In this document: positions 3,860 to 48,677 of the stretch, piece after piece
How positions within the stretch are numbered: position 1 is the stretch's first letter
How the letters are laid out: each line of letters starts with the position of its first letter
Assembly (NCBI GenBank): GCA_964349765.1
Contig: CAYGGZ010000005.1
Coordinates: 15,918 to 79,917 of the forward strand
Direction: 5' to 3'
Length of the DNA: 64,000 nucleotides
Origin: an uncultured Bacteroidales bacterium
GTDB lineage: Bacteria; Bacteroidota; Bacteroidia; Bacteroidales; JAAYJT01
The notes under the pieces: generated by a model
The model's input: only the letters and a program-made list of their open reading frames with translations
Databases searched by the model: none
What the model was told of the DNA's origin: nothing
Position numbers and translations under genes: made by a program

Positions 3860-4030
3860 TTGTTTAAATTATTATCATTTGGTAGAACAAAGCTGCAAAG
3901 GTAATGGTTTGAAGGTGCTGAAAATTTTTGCAAAATAAGGAAGGGTTGAACCCAGATTACGCAATTGCATTGCGTAAACGATTAAGAAAATGTAATTCAG
4001 CAATTTAAAATTGCTTCAAACATTTTCTAA

Positions 4031-4100
4031 ATCGGGGTTACCCTCATGGAATCAATAGTTCAGCCCTAACGGACTTTCTATTGATTAATTCGGGTTGAAC
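4031..4100 (+). repeat. intergenic hairpin repeat family, copy 1 (hairpin B only)
   Basis: aatcggggttaccctcatggaatcaatagttcagccctaacggactttctattgattaattcgggttgaa; about 85-90% identical to 5062-5130 and to the reverse complement of 20921-20990. Contains a 9-bp stem aatcaatag/ctattgatt. Confidence 0.85.
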
Positions 4101-4124
4101 GTATTTTTTGCATATTTTTGAAGA

Positions 4125-5033
4125 ATGAAACATCCGGTTATTCATCTTAGTGAACCCTTCCACCAGAATATGCTCCGGGTACTCGATAGCTATCACGCGT
4201 ATGCTGTGCGCTACCTGGCGCAGGATCTGAAACAGCATGAGAATATACACCAAACACGGTTGTGTTTCAAAAGATTACGAAGTTTGCTCAGGCTCGGAAG
4301 GTTTGGTCTTGGGAAAACTGTTTATCAGCAGTTCAATTTTTTTTACCGCGATCAGGCGCGAAAATTATCAGGACTTAGGGATCAAACAGTTTTGTTGCAG
4401 CACCTTGTTCCTTTAATCCGAAGCCGGCGTTCGAAACCTGTGCAGCAAGCCCTTATGGTTATGCACGACGATTTATTGAGCCAGCGAAAAGAACAGATTG
4501 CCAGATTTCACGAATCCGGCGTTATGGGGCAGGTGCGATCGGCGCTGATCGATGCAGAGCAACACCTCCACTCAATTGAGTTCGCTGTAAAAGAATCGGA
4601 TATTTTCATCAAAGGAATAATAAATGTGTATGAGCAAGCACGGAGAGATTTCCGCAGCCTTGCTCTGCCCGGCGGCATGAACGACATCATGATGCACGAC
4701 TGGCGAAAACAAGTAAAATACCTTTGGTATCAAATTGCACTGATGAACCAACTATGGCCAAACATGATGAACGCCTGGAGCAATGAAACAAAAGAACTAA
4801 GCAAATTACTCGGTTTACATCATGATATGTTTTTGTTGCAGCAGGCAATTGATAATTACAGCAAGTCGTTCAGTCCAAATCTCTTTAAAAACCTAAACAA
4901 CAGTATTGCAACAAAAAAGCGAAAATTGGAAACGCTGTCGCTTGATCTGGGGTCGAAACTGTTTGCCGAAAAACCATCGGCGTTGAAAATCAGGCTTGGG
5001 TCATTCCTATCCGCATGCAAACAGGTTCATTAA
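4125..5033 (+). CDS. CHAD domain-containing protein
   Basis: 302 aa, all-helical. HQTRLCFKRLRSLLRL and WRKQVKYLWY match the conserved His/Arg helices of CHAD domains. Confidence 0.7.
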   Translation: MKHPVIHLSEPFHQNMLRVLDSYHAYAVRYLAQDLKQHENIHQTRLCFKRLRSLLRLGRFGLGKTVYQQFNFFYRDQARKLSGLRDQTVLLQHLVPLIRSRRSKPVQQALMVMHDDLLSQRKEQIARFHESGVMGQVRSALIDAEQHLHSIEFAVKESDIFIKGIINVYEQARRDFRSLALPGGMNDIMMHDWRKQVKYLWYQIALMNQLWPNMMNAWSNETKELSKLLGLHHDMFLLQQAIDNYSKSFSPNLFKNLNNSIATKKRKLETLSLDLGSKLFAEKPSALKIRLGSFLSACKQVH

Positions 5034-5034
5034 A

Positions 5035-5130
5035 CCCCGATTAAGCATTTGACAACACTAAATCGGGATTACCCCCAGGAATCAATAGTTCAACCCGGAC
5101 GGACTTTCTATTGATTAATTCGGGTTGAAA
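5035..5130 (+). repeat. intergenic hairpin repeat family, copy 2 (hairpins A+B)
   Basis: cccgattaagcatttgacaacactaaatcggg (stem cccgatt/aatcggg) followed by the aatcaatag...ctattgatt hairpin. Same orientation as copy 1. Confidence 0.85.
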
Positions 5131-11868: not shown

Positions 11869-12723
11869 ATGGCTATCAGAACCACGCAACACCATCCGTT
11901 ATGGCCAACCGAGGCAGAAGCTTCGCAGGACGAACTGTTTTTATACCCCCCAGTAGTGGATTCGGCAGCCAACATCCAGCCCCAGCCATTTATCTTTTAC
12001 GATACAACGGATTATACTGCAATCCAAACATATAGAACCCGCCCCGATCATGGTAATCCTATCATGCAAACATCAGATGGCCTGGCAACTGGCTTGATTT
12101 TGTTTTGTTTTGTGCTACTTGCCTGGATTCGATATAACAATCCCCGAAGATTATCGCAGATTTTGAAGGCTGCTTTTCTAATTAAGCATATGCACCAACT
12201 GCAACGCGATGGAAATGTTTTTAACGAGCAGATTCCGTTGGTTCTTTCGGTGATATTCCTGATTGCTTTTCCATTGCTCGCTTATTCGCTGGCTGTAGGT
12301 TCAGGTTTGTTTGTAAACATTGACAATAACATTGGGTTAGTTCTGGCGGGGATAGCAATCTTTACCGGTTTCATGTGGTCGTTGAAAGCATTGCTTAACC
12401 GCATTTTGGCGCATCTGTTCCGAACCCAGGCTGCCACACGGTTTTACTTGTTTAATAACTTGATATTTAATGCGCTAATCGGATTAGTATCGCTTGTGTT
12501 TTTACCTGTGATTTTTTTTAGTGGGTTGGAGTGGGCGGTGTATCCGGCGGTTGTGGTGGTTGCGCTTCTTATCCTCTACAAAGTAGTTCGCGGAGTGATG
12601 ATAGGCTCTACTTTGAGCTCTTACCCGTTATCATATCAGATTTTGTATATTGTTGTAATAGAGGTGCTTCCACTTGCTCTCGCCGGAAAAATACTGTATG
12701 ATTTGAACAACATGTCGCTCTAA
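11869..12723 (+). CDS. multi-pass membrane protein (possibly DUF4271 family)
   Basis: 284 aa with about six hydrophobic segments after a ~70-aa soluble N-terminus. The family assignment is from memory only. Confidence 0.4.
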   Translation: MAIRTTQHHPLWPTEAEASQDELFLYPPVVDSAANIQPQPFIFYDTTDYTAIQTYRTRPDHGNPIMQTSDGLATGLILFCFVLLAWIRYNNPRRLSQILKAAFLIKHMHQLQRDGNVFNEQIPLVLSVIFLIAFPLLAYSLAVGSGLFVNIDNNIGLVLAGIAIFTGFMWSLKALLNRILAHLFRTQAATRFYLFNNLIFNALIGLVSLVFLPVIFFSGLEWAVYPAVVVVALLILYKVVRGVMIGSTLSSYPLSYQILYIVVIEVLPLALAGKILYDLNNMSL

Positions 12724-13034
12724 ACAGTATCTGGATGAAGACGTTAAAAATTGTCCCACTCCGTACGAAAGCATCGCTCATTAGCCGGATTTTAAGATTG
12801 CAGTGCCTGATTAAAAAGCCAGTGGATTGACGAGTTTCGCTTTATGCACAAAAAGGACTTACTCTGGGTTATTCATTTATGATTGATTAACAGCTTTTTA
12901 ATCCTTTCTTTGATCCTATCTCTGAAGTTCGTTGGGAGCGATGTATGGGTTTGGTATTGAGTTATTGCACTGCCTATATTAGGGCTTTCAGATTATTGCC
13001 TTTTGTGACGTGCAGTATTTTATTTTGTGTAGGG

Positions 13035-15124: not shown

Positions 15125-15432
15125 TAGTCATTAATTTAATATTGCAATATTACGTTAGTTGTTTTGGTTGTGCAAATTTTTTTGTAAATTTTTCATCAAG
15201 TTACCAAATTGAAGGCCAATTGTATATTCGATTTGATGTAATGGTACGATACATGGAATTGCTGGTAATAGCTGTGGGTATTGTCGCAATTGATGATTTC
15301 TGATGCTCCACATACTCTATAGCGTGGTGAATGCTCTTAAGCGTTTAAGCATTGTCAAATGCTTAATATGGGTTAATGCATTGTCATAAGCTTAAACTTG
15401 GTTAGATTATTAAGAGGAAACTTTTTGTATGT

Positions 15433-20879: not shown

Positions 20880-20920
20880 TTCAGACCCATTTTGGGTGAT
20901 GTTACAATAGATCCGATAAA

Positions 20921-21010
20921 CCCGAATTAATCAATAGAAAGTCTGTTAGGGCTGAACTATTGATTCCATTAGGGTAACACCGATTATGCATTGTTAAACG
21001 CTTAATCGGG
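20921..21010 (-). repeat. intergenic hairpin repeat family, copy 3 (hairpins A+B, inverted orientation)
   Basis: The reverse complement reads cccgattaagcgtttaacaatgcataatcggtgttaccctaatggaatcaatagttcagccctaacagactttctattgattaattcgggtt. Lies between convergent genes. Confidence 0.85.
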
Positions 21011-21012
21011 AC

Positions 21013-22767
21013 TTATAATTGAACAAGCACTATTTCTGCTTTTCCATCCCGCAGCAGTTCAACAACCGCGGTTTCACCCGCAGCGAGTGTATTAAGCCTT
21101 GCCATGTATTCGTAAATGTTCCCAACGGGCAAACCGTTCAAGGCAGTTATCAAATCTCCCTTACGGATCCCCGCACGTCCTGCTGGTCCGTCGGGTCTTA
21201 CGCCATCAACCCTTAACCCATTTTGCGACGACGTTATATCGGGGATAATCCCGAGCGTAACCTTAAAGCTCCTGCCGTACATTCGTCGCGGTGGCGCACC
21301 GCTTTCGGCAAAGGTAAGCGAGGTTGTTAGAGCCGACATTTGTTGTATCACGCCTAACACAAGATCAAGTACCATGGCTTGTCCTTGTGAATTTGTTTTA
21401 TCTGGCGTATCAAACGGAGTATGATAATCCACATGAGCGCCGGTTGTGAAAAATAGTACGGGAAAAGATGCGGCATAAAATGCGGCATGGTCGGAAGGCC
21501 CATATCCGTCGGGGTGGCGTTGCAACTGCAAAGGCGAATACTGAGCTGCTGCCGTTATGAGCGAATCGAGTTCAATTGCAGTACCGGTTCCGCCAATCGA
21601 AAGCGACTTGCAATCGCTCAACCGCCCGATCATATCGAGATTGATCATAAGTTGGATGTCGCTTTTTGGCACCGGCAGGTTCTGAACAAAGTATCTTGAG
21701 CCAACCAATCCCATTTCTTCGGCTCCAAAGGCAATAAAAATGAGATCGAAAGGAATTGGAAACCCGGCTGTAGTCAGTTTTTTGGCAAGCTCAATCAAGC
21801 CTGCCACACCAGAGGCATTATCATCTGCGCCTGGATGCACGGCAATTGTGTCGGGCATGCGGGAACCCGAGCCTACACCTCCCTTCCCGAGATGATCATA
21901 GTGTGCTCCGATTACAACAGCGGGTTTGTTTGAATAGCCATGCAATATTCCGGCTACATTGAAGGTGGATTCAATTCTTGTTTTTAGCACTGTTTGGGCT
22001 GCAACCTGTACCGGAATAGGGAACCCGACAGGCTTGCCATTAGTGAGCATTGTTTCTTCCAATCCGGCAATAGTATATCCGGTGTTGGTAAGCAGTTTGT
22101 CGGCAAAATATCGTGTGATGTTAATCACAGGAATTGATGCTGTGGAGGGCGATTTATCGTAAAATGCCGGCATGAGCCGGTCGTTACGATCGGTTGCAAT
22201 ACCCTTAACCACAATCAATCCGATTGCACCTTGGTCTGAAGCGGTTATAGCTTTGATTCTGTCGCCGGCATGGGGAATCAGGTCGCTATCGCGTTTATCA
22301 GGTTCGGGATCGCCAGCAAGAACCATTACCCACTTACCTGTTACATCTGTGTGTTCATAATCATCCCACCTTCCTGGAACAGAAATTCCGTATCCGGAAA
22401 AATGTACGCTGCCCGAAGAATATCCGCTAGCCGAGAAGGATAGAGGAACAAAATCGCGGTTCAGAACCGCAGTGTCGGTGCAGGAGTAGAATTTATTCCC
22501 ATCCTGCAATTCTACACCGGTTGCAACCGAAAATGGTTGAAACCCATTGTCAAACATTAGTTCCAGGCCTGCTTTCGAAAAACTGCGGACGATAAAGTCT
22601 GCTGCAAGGGAATCGCCGTGTGATCCGGGATAACGCCCCGCCATTTTTGCGGATGTCAGAAAATTGATGTGCTCCTGAATTCTACCTGCTTCAAAGCGAG
22701 TTAACGATTGGGCATAAACAAGCTGAGGCAACAACAATATCAAGGAAAGAGTCAGAGATATGATCAT
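21013..22767 (-). CDS. M28 family aminopeptidase with C-terminal PDZ domain
   Basis: GADDNASGVAGLIELAK and FGAEEMGLVGS zinc-ligand motifs; C-terminal GIRKGDLITALNGLPV (PDZ). Confidence 0.85.
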   Translation of the reverse strand: MIISLTLSLILLLPQLVYAQSLTRFEAGRIQEHINFLTSAKMAGRYPGSHGDSLAADFIVRSFSKAGLELMFDNGFQPFSVATGVELQDGNKFYSCTDTAVLNRDFVPLSFSASGYSSGSVHFSGYGISVPGRWDDYEHTDVTGKWVMVLAGDPEPDKRDSDLIPHAGDRIKAITASDQGAIGLIVVKGIATDRNDRLMPAFYDKSPSTASIPVINITRYFADKLLTNTGYTIAGLEETMLTNGKPVGFPIPVQVAAQTVLKTRIESTFNVAGILHGYSNKPAVVIGAHYDHLGKGGVGSGSRMPDTIAVHPGADDNASGVAGLIELAKKLTTAGFPIPFDLIFIAFGAEEMGLVGSRYFVQNLPVPKSDIQLMINLDMIGRLSDCKSLSIGGTGTAIELDSLITAAAQYSPLQLQRHPDGYGPSDHAAFYAASFPVLFFTTGAHVDYHTPFDTPDKTNSQGQAMVLDLVLGVIQQMSALTTSLTFAESGAPPRRMYGRSFKVTLGIIPDITSSQNGLRVDGVRPDGPAGRAGIRKGDLITALNGLPVGNIYEYMARLNTLAAGETAVVELLRDGKAEIVLVQL

Positions 22768-42779: not shown

Positions 42780-43346
42780 TTGAAAACCTTAATTAAACAT
42801 ATCACAAACATCCAAACCGGACTCTTTGCAAAGCCCTCTGGCAGTGGCAATGTTGTGTATTTACAATCCAAGCATTTTGACGAAAACGGACAATTGCATG
42901 CTGTTCTTCACCCTGATTTGGTGGCTGAGGGGATTTCTGAAAAGCATCTGCTAAGAGACGGTGATGTGATTTTTGCAGCGAAGGGTTATAAAAACTTTGC
43001 AGCCGTTTTTGAAAACCACAACGAACCTTCCGTTGCTTCTACCTCCTTCTTTGTTATAAGACCAACCGACCAAAAAGTGTTGTCTAAATATTTGGTTTGG
43101 TTTCTAAATAACCACACCACACAAACACTTTTAAAAGGCCAAGCCATCGGAACTTCAATTCCTTCCATTTCAAAACAGGTTTTAGAAAATCTGGAAATTA
43201 CAGTGCCGAGCATTGAAATCCAAAAGGCGATTCTGAAAATCACAAAACTCCGCAACAAGGAGAAAGCTTTGAAGCAGGAATTAGAACTTTTAAGAGATAG
43301 AAAAATAAATCAACAGCTATTACAGGCTATAAACTATGAGAGATAA
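42780..43346 (+). CDS. hsdS: Type I restriction-modification specificity subunit, half-size (single TRD plus one conserved helix)
   Basis: 188 aa. TRD-like body (GDVIFAAKG...SFFVIRP...YLVWFLN...GTSIPSISK..LENLEI.VPS.EIQ..I) and a coiled-coil tail. Only a TTG start is available; the last codons lie in an inverted-repeat arm. Confidence 0.65.
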   Translation: MKTLIKHITNIQTGLFAKPSGSGNVVYLQSKHFDENGQLHAVLHPDLVAEGISEKHLLRDGDVIFAAKGYKNFAAVFENHNEPSVASTSFFVIRPTDQKVLSKYLVWFLNNHTTQTLLKGQAIGTSIPSISKQVLENLEITVPSIEIQKAILKITKLRNKEKALKQELELLRDRKINQQLLQAINYER

Positions 43347-43355
43347 GATATGAGA
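43335..43355. repeat. left inverted-repeat arm of four-helix-bundle cassette 1
   Basis: tatgagagataagatatgaga matches the reverse complement of the CATATCT array (tatgagatatgagatatgaga) at 19 of 21 positions. It contains the hsdS-half stop codon and the cassette gene's ATG. Confidence 0.8.
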
Positions 43356-43718
43356 CAAAGTAAATCCATATTAAAAGACAAATCATTTGCGTTTGCGATA
43401 GCTATTGTGAGGGCATATAAAACTCTTGTTGAAGAGAAAAGAGAATTTGTGATGAGCAAACAATTGTTGCGTTCAGGAACTTCAGTTGGTGCAAATATTC
43501 GTGAGGCAAAAAATGCTGAAAGCACAAATGACTTCATCCATAAACTTGGCATAGCCCAAAAAGAATGTGATGAAACTTTGTACTGGCTTGAATTGCTCAA
43601 GAAAACTGAATTCCTTAATGAACAAACTTTTTTAGAACTCTCAGACCAAGCCAATCAAATCCTTAAAATGATTCGAAGCACCATCTTAACCATCAAACAA
43701 AAAAATCTCAAATCTTAA
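43350..43718 (+). CDS. four helix bundle protein (23S rRNA intervening-sequence protein family, PF05635)
   Basis: KSFAFAIAIVRAYKTL....EFVMSKQLLRSGTSVGANIREAKNAES..DFIHKLGIAQKECDETLYWLELL is the family signature. Confidence 0.9.
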   Translation: MRQSKSILKDKSFAFAIAIVRAYKTLVEEKREFVMSKQLLRSGTSVGANIREAKNAESTNDFIHKLGIAQKECDETLYWLELLKKTEFLNEQTFLELSDQANQILKMIRSTILTIKQKNLKS

Positions 43719-43722
43719 ATCC

Positions 43723-43760
43723 CATATCTCATATCTCATATCTCATATCTCATATCTCAT
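43723..43760 (+). repeat. heptanucleotide tandem repeat (CATATCT x5.4) ending in the hsdM start codon; right arm of cassette 1
   Basis: Direct reading: catatct catatct catatct catatct catatct cat|g. The ATG of hsdM (43759-43761) is formed by the last partial unit. Confidence 0.95.
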
Positions 43761-45456
43761 GGCTAAAATAACTCAGAAAGACATCAACGATGCAGTTTGG
43801 AAAGCTTGCGACACCTTTAGGGGAAGCATTGACCCAAGCGTTTACAAAGACTATGTACTTACCATGCTATTCCTAAAATATCTCAGCGATGTGCATGACG
43901 ATAAAATGGAAAGCTACCTGAAAAAGTACAATGGCGATATGGAACGTGCCAAACGTGCCATGCAGCACGAACGATTCATTGTACCGGAGCATAGCCATTT
44001 TAAGTTTCTGTACGATTCTCGGAACGAAGCCAATATTGGTGAACTCATTAATATTGCTTTGGCAGATTTGGAAGAAGCCAACCGTGAGAAATTGTACAGT
44101 GAAGACGGTGCAGGTATTTTCCAGAACATTGACTTTAACAGCAGCAAGCTGGGCGAACCCAAAGACAAAAACACCCGACTGAAAAACCTCTTGCTCGATT
44201 TCAACAAGGATGCTTTGAACCTTCGTCCTTCCCATTTGGATGGTAACGACATTATTGGGGGTGCTTACATGTTCCTCATTGAAAACTTTGCCAGTGATGC
44301 AGGGAAAAAAGCGGGAGAATTTTTTACACCAAAAGAAGTATCTACGCTTATTGCCAAACTCACCAAATCAAAACCCGGTTCACGCATAAGTGATCCAACC
44401 TGCGGTTCGGCTTCACTCTTGATAAAAGCAGGCGAAGAAGTTGGTTCAGATAATTTTTCACTTTACGGACAAGAAGCAAACGGCAGCACCTGGGCATTAG
44501 CTGTGATGAATATGTTTTTGCATGGCTTCGATAACGCTACTATTCGCTGGGGCGATACCATCCGCAACCCCAAACTAAAGGAAGGCGATACGCTGATGAA
44601 GTTTGATACCGTAGTGGCAAATCCGCCATTCTCTTTAGACAAATGGGGAAAGGTAGAAGACAAGGAAGGCGACAAAACCACCATCAGCTACGACCCCGAA
44701 ACCGACAAATACAACCGTTTTTGGAGAGGCGTGCCACCCAAGAGCAAAGGCGACTGGGCATTTATCAGCCACATGATAGAAACCTTGAACGAACATGGAA
44801 AAGCGGGTGTGGTAGTGCCACATGGTGTATTGTTTCGTGGCAGCAGCGAAGGCCGCATACGCCAACGCACCATTGAAGAAAACCTGTTGGAAGCAGTAAT
44901 TGGCTTACCTGCCAACCTGTTTTTTGGTACAGGTATTCCGGCTGCAATCTTAGTTTTTAACAAGCAAAAAAGCAGCAACAACGTATTGTTTATTGATGCC
45001 AGCAAGCACTACGAAAGTGTCAAAAACCAAAATAAGCTGCGATCTTCAGATATTGAGCGAATAGTAGGAACTTATGAACTCTTGCAGAGCTATGAACTAG
45101 GAGATATAAGTTATGAGATGCTGGAGAAATCAGGAAAATGGAAAGTGGATGGTGATTATTTGATAAGCCTTCGTTCAGGTAGCAAACTACTCAAATCCGA
45201 ACTCGAAATCTTAAACAACAAAAATCTCAAATCTCATCCCTCATATCTCATATCTCCGAAATACAGCTATGTAGCTTCCCCTGAAGAAATACAGGTAAAC
45301 GACTATAACCTGAACATTCCACGCTATGTGGACACTTTTGAAGAAGAACCCGAAGTGGATATTGCTGCGGTGCAAAAGGAGATTGAACAACTGGAAGGCG
45401 AATTAGTGAAAGTGCAAAGTGAGATTGAAGTTTATTTAAAACAATTAATAAATTAG
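43759..45456 (+). CDS. hsdM: Type I restriction-modification DNA methyltransferase subunit M (N6-adenine)
   Basis: HsdM_N helical domain; motif I DPTCGSASLL; motif IV VANPPFS; C-terminal NDYNLNIPRYVD. At 565 aa it is longer than usual because of an insertion at about 45091-45257. Confidence 0.95.
   Translation: MAKITQKDINDAVWKACDTFRGSIDPSVYKDYVLTMLFLKYLSDVHDDKMESYLKKYNGDMERAKRAMQHERFIVPEHSHFKFLYDSRNEANIGELINIALADLEEANREKLYSEDGAGIFQNIDFNSSKLGEPKDKNTRLKNLLLDFNKDALNLRPSHLDGNDIIGGAYMFLIENFASDAGKKAGEFFTPKEVSTLIAKLTKSKPGSRISDPTCGSASLLIKAGEEVGSDNFSLYGQEANGSTWALAVMNMFLHGFDNATIRWGDTIRNPKLKEGDTLMKFDTVVANPPFSLDKWGKVEDKEGDKTTISYDPETDKYNRFWRGVPPKSKGDWAFISHMIETLNEHGKAGVVVPHGVLFRGSSEGRIRQRTIEENLLEAVIGLPANLFFGTGIPAAILVFNKQKSSNNVLFIDASKHYESVKNQNKLRSSDIERIVGTYELLQSYELGDISYEMLEKSGKWKVDGDYLISLRSGSKLLKSELEILNNKNLKSHPSYLISPKYSYVASPEEIQVNDYNLNIPRYVDTFEEEPEVDIAAVQKEIEQLEGELVKVQSEIEVYLKQLIN
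45091..45257 (+). repeat. decayed four-helix-bundle-cassette-like insertion, in frame within hsdM
   Basis: The left end tatgaactaggagatataagttatgagatg is homologous to 47141-47172. The right end aaaaatctcaaatctcatccctcatatctcatatctcc is ~90% identical to 43701-43740 (the cassette 1 end), with the TAA stop replaced by CAT. Confidence 0.7.
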
Positions 45457-45482
45457 CCATTTCGAGCGCAACCTCGAAATGG
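45457..45482 (+). terminator. perfect 10-bp hairpin immediately after the hsdM stop
   Basis: ccatttcgag (45457-45466), loop cgcaac, ctcgaaatgg (45473-45482). There is no clear T-run, so its function (terminator or processing site) is uncertain. Confidence 0.4.
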
Positions 45483-45502
45483 TTCAATATAAAGTGATTA
45501 TT

Positions 45503-46342
45503 ATGGCTAAAGAAAAAAAATCAACCATTGTTGTTCAAGGATTGGCAGTTAACATTATTAGCCAATCTCAAGTCGATTATATATCAATAACAGATATTGC
45601 ACGGCACAGAGATGCCGACCGCAGCGATTATATTCTTCAGAACTGGCTACGAAACCGAAGTACAATAGAGTTTATTGGGCTTTGGGAACAACTTCGAAAT
45701 CCATATTTTAATTCCATCGAATTCGATGGAATTAAAATTATGTCGGGGTCAAATAGCTTTTCACTGACACCAAAGAGATGGATAGAAAGCACCAACGCTA
45801 TAGGCATCGTCTCCAAAACAGGAAGATATGGAGGCACATTTGCACATAAGGACATAGCCTTTGAATTTGCCTCATGGATAAGCGCCGAATTCAAAATGTA
45901 CCTGATTGTAGAATTTCAACGCCTGAAGGAAGACGAAAACCGGAGGCTTTCACTGGAATGGAACCTGAACCGCACCTTATCCAAGGTAAACTATCGCATC
46001 CATACCGATGCCATAAAAGAGAATATTATTCCCGCCAACACCACTAAAGAGCAAGAACATTTTATTTATGCCAATGAAGCCGATGTTCTGAATGTAGCTC
46101 TCTTTGGGCAAACAGCAAAGCAATGGCGAAAAACCAACCCCGACAAGGAAGGCAATTTAAGGGATGATAGTACGGTAGAGCAATTGTTGGTAATGGCCAA
46201 TCTGGAAAGCATGAATGCCGAATTTATCCGAATGGGCTTGCCACAAGGTGAAAGACTGAGAAAACTCAATGCCATTGCCATTCAGCAACTAAAATCGTTG
46301 GTGGGAAATGTGAATCTTAAAAAACTGGGAGATGGAATATAA
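45503..46342 (+). CDS. KilA-N domain-containing protein
   Basis: From MAKEKKSTIVVQG..DYISITDIARHRD.....ILQNWLRNRSTIEFIGLWEQLRNP.F......GRYGGTFAHKDIAFEFASWISAEFKMYLIVEFQRLKEDE. This family is commonly embedded in Bacteroidota Type I R-M loci. Confidence 0.85.
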   Translation: MAKEKKSTIVVQGLAVNIISQSQVDYISITDIARHRDADRSDYILQNWLRNRSTIEFIGLWEQLRNPYFNSIEFDGIKIMSGSNSFSLTPKRWIESTNAIGIVSKTGRYGGTFAHKDIAFEFASWISAEFKMYLIVEFQRLKEDENRRLSLEWNLNRTLSKVNYRIHTDAIKENIIPANTTKEQEHFIYANEADVLNVALFGQTAKQWRKTNPDKEGNLRDDSTVEQLLVMANLESMNAEFIRMGLPQGERLRKLNAIAIQQLKSLVGNVNLKKLGDGI

Positions 46343-46512: not shown

Positions 46513-47814
46513 ATGTTTCAAAAAAATCATAGTGCAGACAATAACGAAATTCCGAGTGATTGGGATGTTAAGCATTTTGAGGATGTAGCGGATATTGATA
46601 AGGAGAGCTTGAATGCTAATACTCCAAATGATTACGAGTTCGATTATATCTCTCTTTCTGATGTTGATTCTGTTGATTTTAATATAGAAACAACAAGGCA
46701 AATATTTGCTACAGCACCATCGAGGGCAAGAAGAATTGTTAAACAAGGGGATATTTTAATGTCCACTGTTCGCCCAAATCTTCAAGGTTTTGTCCTTTTA
46801 AGAAATGAGGTTAAAGATTTAATTGCTTCAACTGGTTTTGCTGTAATTACAGCAAAAAAGTGTAGTAAAGAATATCTATTTCAATATTTATTCAGTTCAG
46901 GCATTCAAAAACAATTTTATCACCTGTTGGTTGGTTCCAATTATCCTGCTATAAACTCATCCGATGTAAAAAAACTCAAAATCCCCCTCCCCCCACTCCC
47001 CGAGCAAAAAGCTATAGCCCAAGTGCTAAGCACGGCCGATGCCGCCATCCACACCACCGAAAAACTTATTGCCCAAAAAGAACTGCAAAAAAAATGGCTG
47101 ATGCAGCAATTGCTTACGGGGAAGAAACGGCTTTTTTCTAGAGATGAGTTAGGAGATATGAGTTATGAGTTGAAGAAAGTAAAATTTACAGATGTGTTTC
47201 AAATTATGAAATCTTACTCTATTTCTAGAGAAGGGTTAAGTGATATAGTTGACGAAAGCTCAGTTTATTGTATTCATTATGGAGATATACATGCATTTTA
47301 CTCCAATGAGTTCTTAGATTTTTCTTCTCAAAAAGGTATCCCATCTTTAAAAAATGAAATATTGATTAACCCTAAGGACTTTTTACAGGATGGCGACATA
47401 CTAATGGCTGATGCATCTGAAGATTATGAAGGTGTTGGTGAGATAGTAGAAGTAACAAACTTAAAAGATAAAAAAGCAATTGGAGGATTACACACAATTG
47501 TGCTTAGGCCTAGCAAAAAAGTTATATCACCAAAATACACAGCTTATCTTTTGTCCAGCGAAATAGTAAAAAATGAACTAAGAAAAAAAGCTACTGGCAC
47601 ATCAGTTTATAGCGTTTCCAAGTCAACACTTCATAACTTATCTCTCATAATTCATAACTCCTTAAAAGAACAAACCGCCATTGCCAAGGTACTGCAAGCG
47701 GCAGATAAAGAAATCAGCCTGCTCAAAGCCAAAGCAGATAAGTTGCAGGAGCAGAAAAAGGGATTGATGCAGCAGCTACTCACCGGTAAAGTGAGATTGA
47801 AAATTGAAAACTAA
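46513..47814 (+). CDS. hsdS: Type I restriction-modification specificity subunit S (two TRDs)
   Basis: 433 aa. Two conserved regions, LPPLPEQKAIAQVLSTADAAI...LMQQLLTGKKRL and LKEQTAIAKVLQAADKEI...LMQQLLTGKVRL, separate two AT-rich TRDs. Confidence 0.95.
   Translation: MFQKNHSADNNEIPSDWDVKHFEDVADIDKESLNANTPNDYEFDYISLSDVDSVDFNIETTRQIFATAPSRARRIVKQGDILMSTVRPNLQGFVLLRNEVKDLIASTGFAVITAKKCSKEYLFQYLFSSGIQKQFYHLLVGSNYPAINSSDVKKLKIPLPPLPEQKAIAQVLSTADAAIHTTEKLIAQKELQKKWLMQQLLTGKKRLFSRDELGDMSYELKKVKFTDVFQIMKSYSISREGLSDIVDESSVYCIHYGDIHAFYSNEFLDFSSQKGIPSLKNEILINPKDFLQDGDILMADASEDYEGVGEIVEVTNLKDKKAIGGLHTIVLRPSKKVISPKYTAYLLSSEIVKNELRKKATGTSVYSVSKSTLHNLSLIIHNSLKEQTAIAKVLQAADKEISLLKAKADKLQEQKKGLMQQLLTGKVRLKIEN
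47141..47172. repeat. inverted-repeat arm at the 5' edge of hsdS TRD2
   Basis: gagatgagttaggagatatgagttatgagttg. 25 of 29 positions are identical to the hsdM-internal left end (45092-45120). Its inverted partner is at 47632-47661. Confidence 0.7.
47632..47661. repeat. inverted-repeat arm at the 3' edge of hsdS TRD2
   Basis: cataacttatctctcataattcataactcc. Its reverse complement ggagttatgaattatgagagataagttatg matches ggagatatgagttatgag (47151-47168) at about 15 of 18 positions. Confidence 0.65.
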
Positions 47815-47825
47815 ACAAAATTGAT

Positions 47826-48677
47826 ATGGCAAAAAAATTACAACGAATCGCAATCGCCTATGACTTTGATGGAACTTTGGCCCCAGGCAATATGCAGCAG
47901 CATTCTTTTATTCCAAAACTAGGTGTTGATAGCGGTACTTTTTGGAAGGAGGTAAAAGCTATCGCAAAAGAAAACGACATGAATGAGATATTGGCATACA
48001 TGCACCATATGATTAAAAAGGCTGATGAAAAGAATATCCCAATAACTAAAAAAGCTTTTGTTGAACATGGCAAAGGGATGCCTATGTTTCCTGGTGTTGT
48101 CGAATATTTTGAAAAGATTAATGAATATGCCAAATCAAAAGAATTGGTTGTAGAACATTATATTATTTCTTCAGGCCTTCGAGATATTCTGAAAGGAACA
48201 CCAATTCATAAAGAATTTGAAATGGTTTTTGCTTCTGCTTATAAGTATAACGTTAACGATGTTGCAGAATGGCCGGCATTAGCAATTGACTATACTAACA
48301 AAACGCAATTTCTATTCAGGATAAATAAAGGAATTAAAAACGCTTGGGATAATGAAAGCATAAATAAGTTTATGCCAGAAAATGAAAGACCTATGCCATT
48401 TAACCGAATGATTTATTTGGGTGATGGTGAGTCTGATATTCCGGCAATGAAAATGATAAATTTTCAAGGTGGGAAATCTATTGCCGTTTATAATCCTGAT
48501 ACTAAAACAAAAGCTGGTAAAAAAGCTAAAAAGATAACTCAAGAACTTGTTTCACAAGGTAGGGCAAACTACGTAGCTCCTGCAGACTACTCTGAGGGAA
48601 GTTCACTTTATAAAATCATTCAGTTGTGCATAGATTCAATGGCTGCGGAAATTGAATTGCAAAATTTTAAAAAGTAA
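47826..48677 (+). CDS. HAD superfamily phosphatase-like protein
   Basis: HAD motif I IAYDFDGTLAP (DxDxT), motif II ISSG, motif IV YLGDGESDIPAMK; 283 aa. Lies between hsdS and hsdR. Confidence 0.7.
   Translation: MAKKLQRIAIAYDFDGTLAPGNMQQHSFIPKLGVDSGTFWKEVKAIAKENDMNEILAYMHHMIKKADEKNIPITKKAFVEHGKGMPMFPGVVEYFEKINEYAKSKELVVEHYIISSGLRDILKGTPIHKEFEMVFASAYKYNVNDVAEWPALAIDYTNKTQFLFRINKGIKNAWDNESINKFMPENERPMPFNRMIYLGDGESDIPAMKMINFQGGKSIAVYNPDTKTKAGKKAKKITQELVSQGRANYVAPADYSEGSSLYKIIQLCIDSMAAEIELQNFKK

Follow-up and report, generated by a model that had tools for sequence, protein, structure and literature searches.

An in-frame insert with inverted heptamer-repeat arms in the hsdM gene of a Bacteroidales type I restriction-modification operon

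A 64,000-nt stretch of DNA from an uncultured Bacteroidales bacterium (GenBank assembly GCA_964349765.1, contig CAYGGZ010000005.1, positions 15,918 to 79,917; hereafter the window) carries one type I restriction-modification (RM) operon on its + strand, at 42.7-55.4 kb. The hsdM gene of this operon, which encodes the methyltransferase subunit, contains an in-frame segment that a first-pass annotation had described as the stop-less remnant of a four-helix-bundle (4HB) gene cassette. The host gene was assigned by its PF02384 and PF12161 domains and by the presence of hsdS and hsdR in the same operon; relatives of its product in the PDB are 7VRU, 3LKD and 7BST. Two further genes of the operon encode 4HB proteins of family PF05635, each in a cassette bounded by repeat arrays, which are referred to below as arms. 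The genes and arms that bear on the insert are listed here by window position; L numbers denote related loci with which the window was compared.

42780-43346, + strand: half-length hsdS (hsdS')
43326-43355, + strand: left arm of 4HB cassette 1, overlapping the hsdS' stop and the 4HB ATG (inverted repeat; comparison with empty junctions)
43350-43718, + strand: 4HB gene of cassette 1, 122 amino acids (aa) (PF05635, 23S_rRNA_IVP; Pfam 9.9e-29)
43702-43763, + strand: right arm of cassette 1, an AATCTCA/TATCTCA heptamer array ending at the hsdM ATG
43759-45456, + strand: hsdM, 565 aa, host of the insert (Pfam N6_Mtase 3.6e-95, HsdM_N 4.3e-24)
45076-45258, + strand: class A insert, codons E440-P500, 183 nt (homologue alignment, 80-locus survey and codon-level comparison)
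45082-45120, + strand: left, purine-rich arm of the insert, with core stem 45100-45117 (GGAGATATAAGTTATGAG), translated as ..QSYELGDISYEM
45121-45206, + strand: core of the insert (LEKSGKWKVDGDYLISLRSGSKLLKSELE)
45207-45261, + strand: right, pyrimidine-rich arm of the insert, AATCTCA/TATCTCA units, with core stem 45240-45257, translated as ..NNKNLKSHPSYLISPK
46513-47814, + strand: full-length hsdS
47131-47171, + strand: left-type arm in hsdS at the boundary of conserved region 1 (CR1) and target recognition domain 2 (TRD2) (..SRDELGDMSYEL..), near-identical to the left arm of the hsdM insert
47631-47674, + strand: right-type arm in hsdS at the TRD2/CR2 boundary (..LHNLSLIIHNSLKEQ)
51019-54246, + strand: hsdR
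54250-54276, + strand: left arm of cassette 2, GAGAATT/GAAAATG units
54274-54627, + strand: 4HB gene of cassette 2 (PF05635; Pfam 1.5e-27)
54640-54672, + strand: right arm of cassette 2, ATTCTCC units, translated as an N-terminal extension of the YgjP-like protein (empty junction in L008)
54624-55373, + strand: YgjP-like metallopeptidase gene

Codon-level comparison with insert-free alleles showed that the 183-nt insert stands in place of their 45-nt loop RDFAAGKLQPGVVED. With 61 residues for 15 it is a replacement rather than a pure insertion, and the net gain is 46 residues, not the ~55 extra codons of the first-pass annotation. The segment lies in the linker between the catalytic domain of HsdM and its C-terminal, HsdS-binding helix, where residues 441 to 501 of the query span only residues 446 to 452 of the chain in PDB 3LKD; the earlier view of an insertion at a short linker was therefore correct. 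The ends of the insert form an inverted repeat of 18 nt (45100-45117 and 45240-45257, 89% complementary), which bears out the description of the left boundary as the inverted partner of the right one, and the pairing extends, at 71% complementarity, over 38 nt (45082-45119 and 45224-45261). The core between the arms is 28-33 codons long. The insert is predicted from its uninterrupted frame to be translated as part of full-length HsdM.

A survey of 80 species-representative HsdM homologues (77-88% protein identity) showed that 75 have a 15-residue loop at the insert site, in the context TYR-DFAAGKLQPGVVED-KYSYV. Three classes of homologue were distinguished: (i) insert-free (class 0), (ii) class A, which includes the window and shares the conserved core LEKSGxWKxDxxYLIxxxSxxKLLKSELEIL, and (iii) class B, whose core GxIxxxxGKWxNDxxGDF occupies precisely the class A site. 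For class A the DNA of 11 distinct genes was collected, and for class B that of 4. The same segment was found at the same position in L001 and L086, neither of which has a 4HB gene in the junction (L001 has none within 10 kb), which is the finding that the first-pass annotation had itself named as refuting its view of the segment.

The core was found in hsdM only. A metagenome scan that used insert-specific peptides alone returned five loci, all of them (5/5) in hsdM, and phmmer, run exhaustively on 1.84 billion representative proteins, revealed no other host family. Its two matches, to proteins with beta-helix repeats (DUF5649 and Beta_helix) at ~32% identity for each 30-aa repeat, were judged to reflect convergent strand-turn-strand structure and not homology. 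No further copies of the core were found in the rest of the window or in 1.5 Mb of related loci (the whole genomes of the carriers lie outside this scope). Comparison with empty alleles showed no target-site duplication at the boundaries of the insert, and neither the gene content of the locus nor Pfam pointed to a transposase gene within it.

The arms of the insert belong to the same kind of repeat as the arms of the PF05635 cassettes. Cassette 1, which encodes a 4HB protein 100% identical to database protein P0121, spans 43326-43763 including its arms, of which 43326-43355 and 43734-43763 form an inverted repeat of 30 nt (80%). A 4HB gene occupies exactly the hsdS'/hsdM junction in 13 of the 80 loci, and the empty junction reads ...AATAAAATAAATATC immediately followed by the ATG. 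Each cassette subfamily has its own pair of arms, both with a 7-nt period: the left arm is purine-rich and holds the 4HB ATG, and the right arm is pyrimidine-rich and runs from the last codons of the open reading frame (ORF) to the start of the next gene. Four types of arm unit were distinguished: I (GAGATAT/ATATCTC; window), II (TGAATGA), III (GTGAAAA) and IV (GAGAATG; window cassette 2). The hsdM inserts use the same four, type I or II in class A and type III or IV in class B, so that they share with the cassettes a purine left and a pyrimidine right heptamer arm, mutually complementary and of a cassette unit type.

Tandem heptamers are widespread in these genomes. In 1.54 Mb of these loci, 75 lag-7 arrays were counted, compared to 0-14 at lags 5, 6, 8, 9 and 10, and the window itself contains two lag-7 arrays and none for the other lags within 5-11. 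The 16-mer TCATATCTCATATCTC (up to 3 mismatches) has 15 matches in the window, where 0.46 are expected, and 15/15 lie inside the RM operon.

The resemblance of the right end of the hsdM segment to the 3' end of cassette 1 was part of the 4HB-remnant proposal. The match is real, at a lower identity than the ~90% reported: an ungapped comparison of 45221-45257 with 43702-43738 gives 31/37 (84%), made up of an exact 15-nt run AAAAATCTCAAATCT, 9 diverged bases and then TATCTCATATCTC (a 13-14-nt exact run). The right arm of hsdM and 43688-43765 form a direct-repeat family, D1, with 78% identity over 50 nt. The peptide match KNLKS consists of two AATCTCA arm units, with which the 4HB ORF overlaps at its 3' end in the cassettes. 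As had been noted, the TAA of the cassette (43716-43718) is aligned with CAT in hsdM, where the frame continues as ..NKNLKSHPSYLISPK. No special stop-loss event is needed, since the CAT form (..KNLKSHNS-stop, 125 aa) is the commoner natural end of the cassette-1 4HB subfamily.

Beyond these terminal codons, which overlap the arm, no similarity to PF05635 was found. When profiles of the class A inserts and of 4HB proteins were compared by hhalign, only 9 C-terminal columns matched (E=0.068, probability 0.8%), a Pfam scan of the insert gave no match at E up to 10, and blastn-short of the cores against 19 cassettes did no better than shuffled controls. The SLRSGS codons of the insert share a 13-nt match with the conserved LRSGTS codons of 4HB genes, which was attributed to chance: shuffled queries did equally well or better, and the motif is not conserved in class A. 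Thus, what stands of the proposal is that the ends are homologous to cassette arms, are read through in frame and are tolerated by hsdM; a local insertion followed by internal deletion with a TAA to CAT change is not supported, the core having no 4HB similarity and the segment being conserved under purifying selection in at least 11 alleles.

Part of the core can itself be read as arm material. Nucleotides 45124-45156 (GGAGAAATCAGGAAAATGGAAAGTGGATGGTGA) form a degenerate array of purine heptamers, of the AATGGAA type, with lag-7 identity of up to 0.7. Translation of (AATGGAA)n gives NGKWKME, which accounts for the G-K/E-W motif found alike in SGKWKVDG of class A, DGKWIND of class B and NGEWRIDNGKL of the type IV left arm. 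The insert therefore looks like arm-type repeat material throughout, and not like a gene with a hole in it.

Such arrays are translatable because three heptamers make seven codons and the units are free of stops in the direction in which they are read. The proposal that cassette ends behave as translatable linkers held at several places: the N-terminus of the YgjP-like protein (54624-54680), the C-terminus of the half-length HsdS, and an extension of a 4HB ORF in L094 (..KNSYLITHIS-stop), whose peptide is the same as that given by the arm in hsdM. The right arm of cassette 2 adds ~11 N-terminal residues to the YgjP-like protein (MMDAKEFSILHSAFS-IQFGSR, compared to MTEA-IQFGSR at the empty junction of L008), and the left arm of cassette 1 (43334-43346) makes the half-length HsdS end in ..QAINYER-stop instead of the normal ..INAIK-stop.

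The full-length hsdS of the operon also has arms built into its reading frame. TRD2 is bracketed in frame by 47151-47169 and 47644-47662 (19 nt, 89% complementary); in L012 the corresponding hsdS arms (12221-12256 and 12711-12743) match at 22/23 positions, and TRD2 arms are also present in L003, L039 and L014. At the CR1/TRD2 junction, a standard HsdS (L090) has 5-6 residues fewer. Within the window, the left arm of hsdS (GAG TTA GGA GAT ATG AGT TAT GAG TTG) closely follows that of the hsdM insert (GAA CTA GGA GAT ATA AGT TAT GAG ATG). The arm type agrees across hsdM insert, hsdS and cassette in the window (I/I/I) and in L003 (II/II/II). More generally, the arm type of the insert equals that of the local 4HB cassette in 9 of the 11 loci that have both (permutation p 0.01-0.02, uncorrected for relatedness), and the sharing of 7-mers between insert arms and cassettes has a block structure.

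Complementarity of the two arms is maintained across these types. The two arms form a terminal stem with each other in the minimum free energy folds of 14/14 variants, despite the four arm unit types, and class B shows the same stem pattern with unrelated arm sequences. At 21 terminal arm positions in the 11 class A genes, 81% of the cells pair, compared to 25-51% after a shift of the partner by 1-3 columns. In the 21-bp stem, 6 pairs (15 cells) have changed on both sides, a covariation score reached by 0/500 shuffles. The number of right-arm units varies between alleles, up to ~13 in L083, with the frame always kept, while the length of the left arm is fixed: only the stop-free pyrimidine arm changes its unit number, in multiples of three nucleotides overall. 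This restriction to the right arm fits a simple reading of the units, as a perfect TATGAGA array contains an in-frame TGA within 24 nt and TATCTCA/AATCTCA units have no stop triplet.

Pooled Nei-Gojobori counts for ten class A genes gave a proportion of synonymous differences (pS) of 0.76 and of nonsynonymous differences (pN) of 0.22 in the core (pN/pS 0.29). In the flanking hsdM codons pN/pS was 0.14-0.17 and pS 0.62-0.71, and the downstream part stays in frame with a pN/pS of 0.17. The comparison of core and flanks indicates that the insert peptide is constrained, about two-fold more weakly than the flanking HsdM, and the saturation of synonymous sites indicates that the insert is old. Synonymous divergence is reduced in the arms, to 0.31 in the right arm and 0.47 in the left stem, compared to at least 0.7 elsewhere.

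After removal of the insert, the class A and class B genes were not monophyletic, and their nearest relatives were insert-free. Over several kb, L024 (class B) differs from L050 (insert-free) by 0-2%, save for a patch of ~1.1 kb with 8-17% divergence that holds the insert, and in the comparison of L088 (class A) with L005 a breakpoint lies ~100 nt upstream of the insert. The non-monophyly and the two mosaics together argue that the insert moves between hsdM alleles in patches of homologous recombination and not by transposition. Independent site-specific insertions were considered as a cause of class A polyphyly and were rejected in favor of such mosaics.

We put at roughly 60% the probability that the segment is an ORF-less, hairpin-armed module of heptamer arrays that replaced a surface loop of HsdM, is translated, has been retained under purifying selection and spread by recombination, and has arms that evolve in concert. 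Arrays of arm-type heptamers would be the source of the module, which would have begun as a version of the cassette with arms only, or as two arms that entered the loop together, and not by decay of a 4HB ORF. Concerted evolution at the DNA level, with gene conversion between arms or template switching of quasi-palindromes as candidate processes, would best account for the complementarity of the arms, for their reduced synonymous divergence and for their usual agreement in unit type with the other arms of the locus. In the present protein the insert would form a folded excursion from the surface, with a beta-hairpin between two helices, close to the HsdS-binding tail, where it would be tolerated or of slight use. 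An AlphaFold2 model built on 27 close homologues gave residues 431-480 a predicted local distance difference test score (pLDDT) of 68-87, with two helices and a beta-hairpin.

Several observations weigh against this interpretation or limit it. The type of the insert arms differs from that of the local cassette in L082 and L091, and the stems are no worse in the insert-bearing loci that lack a cassette (L001, L086, L048 and L090); continuing conversion from cassette arms is thereby weakened as a sole explanation. The heptamer-array origin leaves the central ~50 nt of the core unaccounted for. It should be noted that the covariation statistics overstate independence, since the changes are essentially those between type I and type II arms, and the compensatory changes reduce to few events. 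The overall RNA fold of the insert is no more stable than that of shuffled sequences (z = -0.24); only the terminal stem forms. The AlphaFold2 model of the whole protein is poor (mean pLDDT 43) and a single-sequence model of the C-terminal part is of low confidence, so the description as a surface excursion rests on the alignment to solved HsdM structures. That the 565-aa HsdM is made and active is likewise a prediction from the sequence.

The proposal of the first-pass annotation, namely that a whole 4HB cassette entered hsdM, lost its ORF by internal deletion, had its stop mutated and left a remnant that is merely tolerated, can draw on the shared nature of the arms, down to the units that overlap the last 4HB codons, and on the location of cassettes: a 4HB cassette lies just upstream of hsdM in 8/11 class A loci, and in 10/15 insert-bearing loci compared to 10/75 insert-free ones. 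Cassettes also decay elsewhere, with a frameshift in L038, a premature stop in L053, truncation in L087 and only a right arm left in L017. Nevertheless, we consider this origin unlikely, given a core that resembles 4HB genes neither as protein nor as DNA and is under purifying selection across saturated synonymous divergence, the presence of a different core (class B) with other arm types at the same site, the natural CAT ending, and the four insert-bearing loci without any nearby 4HB gene. A source within the operon itself, the arm-flanked TRD2 module of hsdS reduced by internal deletion to its arms and the first and last TRD codons, would account for the near-identity of the left arms within the locus (ELGDISYEM and ELGDMSYEL), and GKWKVDGDY is loosely like the TRD start GEWK.v.lGD. 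However, past the arm only the W-K dipeptide is shared, tblastn of the insert found only arm-level matches in hsdS (E 0.2-9.5), and the heptamer array already accounts for the GKW motif; we regard this derivation as improbable in the extreme.

The arms could alternatively be functional nucleic-acid elements, either binding sites for the cognate 4HB protein, which would link hsdM and hsdS with the cassette, or an mRNA hairpin processed by RNase III, like a 23S rRNA intervening sequence (IVS), that tunes hsdM expression, in which case their translation would be incidental. The reduced synonymous divergence in both arms and not in the core, the compensatory changes in the stem, and the unit type peculiar to each 4HB subfamily, which the arms of hsdM and hsdS mostly match locally, would all be expected of such elements, and PF05635 proteins of unknown function are encoded inside stem-flanked rRNA IVSs (PMC11270868). 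Against this stand the four insert-bearing loci without a cassette and the two with a mismatched one, the many cassette-bearing loci (most of them) without arms in hsdM, the unremarkable overall fold, the lack of any Rfam family match for the insert, and the cost that cleavage within hsdM mRNA would have, and we hold it to be as doubtful as the decay of a cassette. Much less probable still is a switch in which inversion or deletion between the arms of cassette, hsdM and hsdS switches the RM system or its specificity. The operon does contain three serial inverted arm pairs of one unit type, one of which flanks a TRD, and phase variation of other type I systems is driven by inverted repeats within their hsdS genes. 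However, the arms here are short and imperfect, and no recombinase gene is present in the locus; ~25 cassettes are all co-oriented with their neighbors, and every hsdM and TRD2 has the same arrangement, with no inverted or deleted variant seen. An inversion switch was accordingly rejected: among ~95 loci no rearranged one was found, and neither a recombinase nor alternative arrangements, the marks of phase variation, were seen.

The insert is real, as first observed, and represents a variant of in-frame palindromic insertions; any function of it is putative. Hairpin-ended inserts that lie in frame, are translated and are thought to be compatible with the protein fold are known from the Rickettsia palindromic elements (RPEs) and other intragenic miniature transposable elements with inverted repeats (MITEs) (PMC10969869). 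Like these elements (e.g. the Coxiella QMITE), the hsdM insert is in the range of ~100-200 nt, has inverted ends and lies in frame in a coding gene. RPEs, however, are multi-copy and dispersed in many unrelated genes of one genome, whereas the core of the hsdM insert was found in hsdM only. The insert also differs in spreading with hsdM alleles by homologous recombination and in having ends of tandem heptamers with a variable number of units. Of the features of MITE- or RPE-like elements, terminal inverted repeats and in-frame insertion are thus present, and dispersed copies, a target-site duplication and a transposase partner were not found.

The 23S rRNA IVSs of Leptospira, Coxiella and Salmonella occur in versions with and without a PF05635 ORF, and PF05635 genes are known mainly from rRNA IVSs and from the Avd proteins of diversity-generating retroelements. 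The IVSs that encode PF05635 ('S23p', 23S_rRNA_IVP) share with the elements described here inverted flanks that can pair, and ORF-containing and ORF-less versions at tolerated sites (PMC11270868). They differ in their host, which is rRNA; here it is a protein-coding operon, with the ORF-less version inside a reading frame and the cassettes at gene junctions (hsdS'/hsdM, hsdR/ygjP, nuoJ/nuoK and upstream of a release-factor gene). The rRNA IVSs are excised by RNase III; for the insert described here a terminal stem is predicted.

Tandem 7-nt units are the hallmark of the short tandemly repeated repetitive (STRR) arrays of cyanobacteria, which are strand-asymmetric, abundant in intergenic regions and sometimes located in reading frames. 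The arrays described here are STRR-like in their head-to-tail 7-nt units and in the excess of lag 7 over other periods, and differ in phylum (Bacteroidota/Ignavibacteriota) and in their arrangement as inverted pairs on either side of a specific gene family and of protein modules. Such heptanucleotide arrays, together with small dispersed repeats, were reportedly described in heterocystous cyanobacteria by Mazel et al. in 1990 and Elhai et al. in 2008. As in phase-variable hsdS loci, the hsdS of the window has inverted repeats at TRD boundaries within a type I RM operon; here there is no recombinase, no silent hsdS copy in opposite orientation was seen and no rearranged variants were found, and the repeats are heptamer arrays of 20-40 nt instead of coding repeats of the conserved regions. 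In the literature searched, neither PF05635 cassettes with heptamer arms nor such arms within hsdM or hsdS were found described, which is weak evidence of novelty because the coverage was incomplete.

The insert provides a concrete route from repeat DNA to protein, in which tandem 7-nt arrays became fixed as a conserved 61-residue excursion in an extremely conserved enzyme. For RM biology, it indicates that the variable HsdM linker next to the HsdS-binding tail accepts large inserts. The wider pattern that it exposes, with PF05635 genes and their inverted heptamer arms placed precisely at the junctions of diverse operons and the same arms built into RM subunits, where they also bracket a TRD of HsdS, is in our opinion a more interesting lead than the insert itself, and makes the function of IVS-type 4HB proteins and the movement of their cassettes testable. 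A speculative synthesis, which we think improbable as it stands, would be that the PF05635 genes of Bacteroidota and their relatives are hairpin-armed, IVS-like mobile cassettes that home to operon junctions (RM, nuo and release-factor genes; rRNA in other phyla), that their arms are tandem-heptamer arrays translatable by construction, that HsdM and HsdS have taken up, in frame, arm pairs that lack an ORF or carry a module, and that the arms within a locus co-evolve via a trans-acting factor, most simply the 4HB protein, which would recognize its own arm type as DNA or RNA. If true, this would give the IVS protein family a function and link it to the control or diversification of type I RM systems.

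Arm-flanked PF05635 genes were also observed between nuoJ and nuoK, upstream of a release-factor gene, and twice in a defence locus of the SNF2/DUF1016/MmeI-like kind. These genes of unrelated operons, all co-oriented with their neighbors, are located as follows:

L093, 2501-2863: PF05635 gene
L094, 966-1334 and 2501-2890: PF05635 genes
L095, 2501-2872: PF05635 gene

Their positions at unrelated operon junctions suggest a mobile, junction-seeking cassette. Solitary arms occur as well. Purine-rich arm arrays without a 4HB gene were found at the hsdR/ygjP junction in L024 (19151-19208) and L050 (20945-21002), and a single type III right arm lies directly upstream of hsdM in L017 (~2100-2196); these arrays look like the remains of lost cassettes. 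A small Cys-rich ORF (~83 aa, ..CPSCGC..HEKYQCPEAEIENCL..RFNIDLDTM.HEC..) replaces the 4HB cassette at the hsdS'/hsdM junction in L089 (2319-2570), and is also present just upstream of hsdM in L004, L043, L047 and L056-L058; it has no Pfam match on record. Inside the YgjP-like coding sequence (..RTIVFRLEYSNRKTIG..), 54688-54729 form a perfect 42-nt palindrome (21 + 21 nt, 100%, no spacer). The homologue in L008 has a mere quasi-palindrome at this place, and the difference may reflect quasi-palindrome correction in the same locus.

Length also varies at a second site of this HsdM family, which is otherwise highly conserved (alignment columns 409-422; window residues ~406-410, nt ~44974-44988). 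In some homologues 7-14 residues are added there, after NKxK (e.g. GVSSSASLSCRQGVENRN in P0064), and in the window none.

The remaining genes of the operon are inserted between those for the RM subunits:

45479-46342, + strand: KilA-N gene
47826-48677, + strand: HAD-like gene
48924-50585, + strand: gene with Schlafen/AlbA_2 and HATPase_c_4 domains

In related loci, other passengers (RhuM, DUF3800, DUF4917, PDDEXK_3) were found at the same places of the operon. The intergenic region upstream of hsdR (50831-51006) contains a unit of ~32 nt (AATTCTCCAAA...GAGTTCTCCAAA) in three direct copies, spaced by 88 and 56 nt, which include the ATTCTCC unit of type IV arms. Elsewhere in the window, a repeat of ~80 nt, which resembles a small dispersed repeat or MITE without relation to the heptamer arms, occurs at least three times (twice direct, once inverted) with 86-92% identity, at 4030-4110, 5065-5129 and 20905-20985, with further coordinates at 5031-5074, 20972-21015 and 15342-15374.

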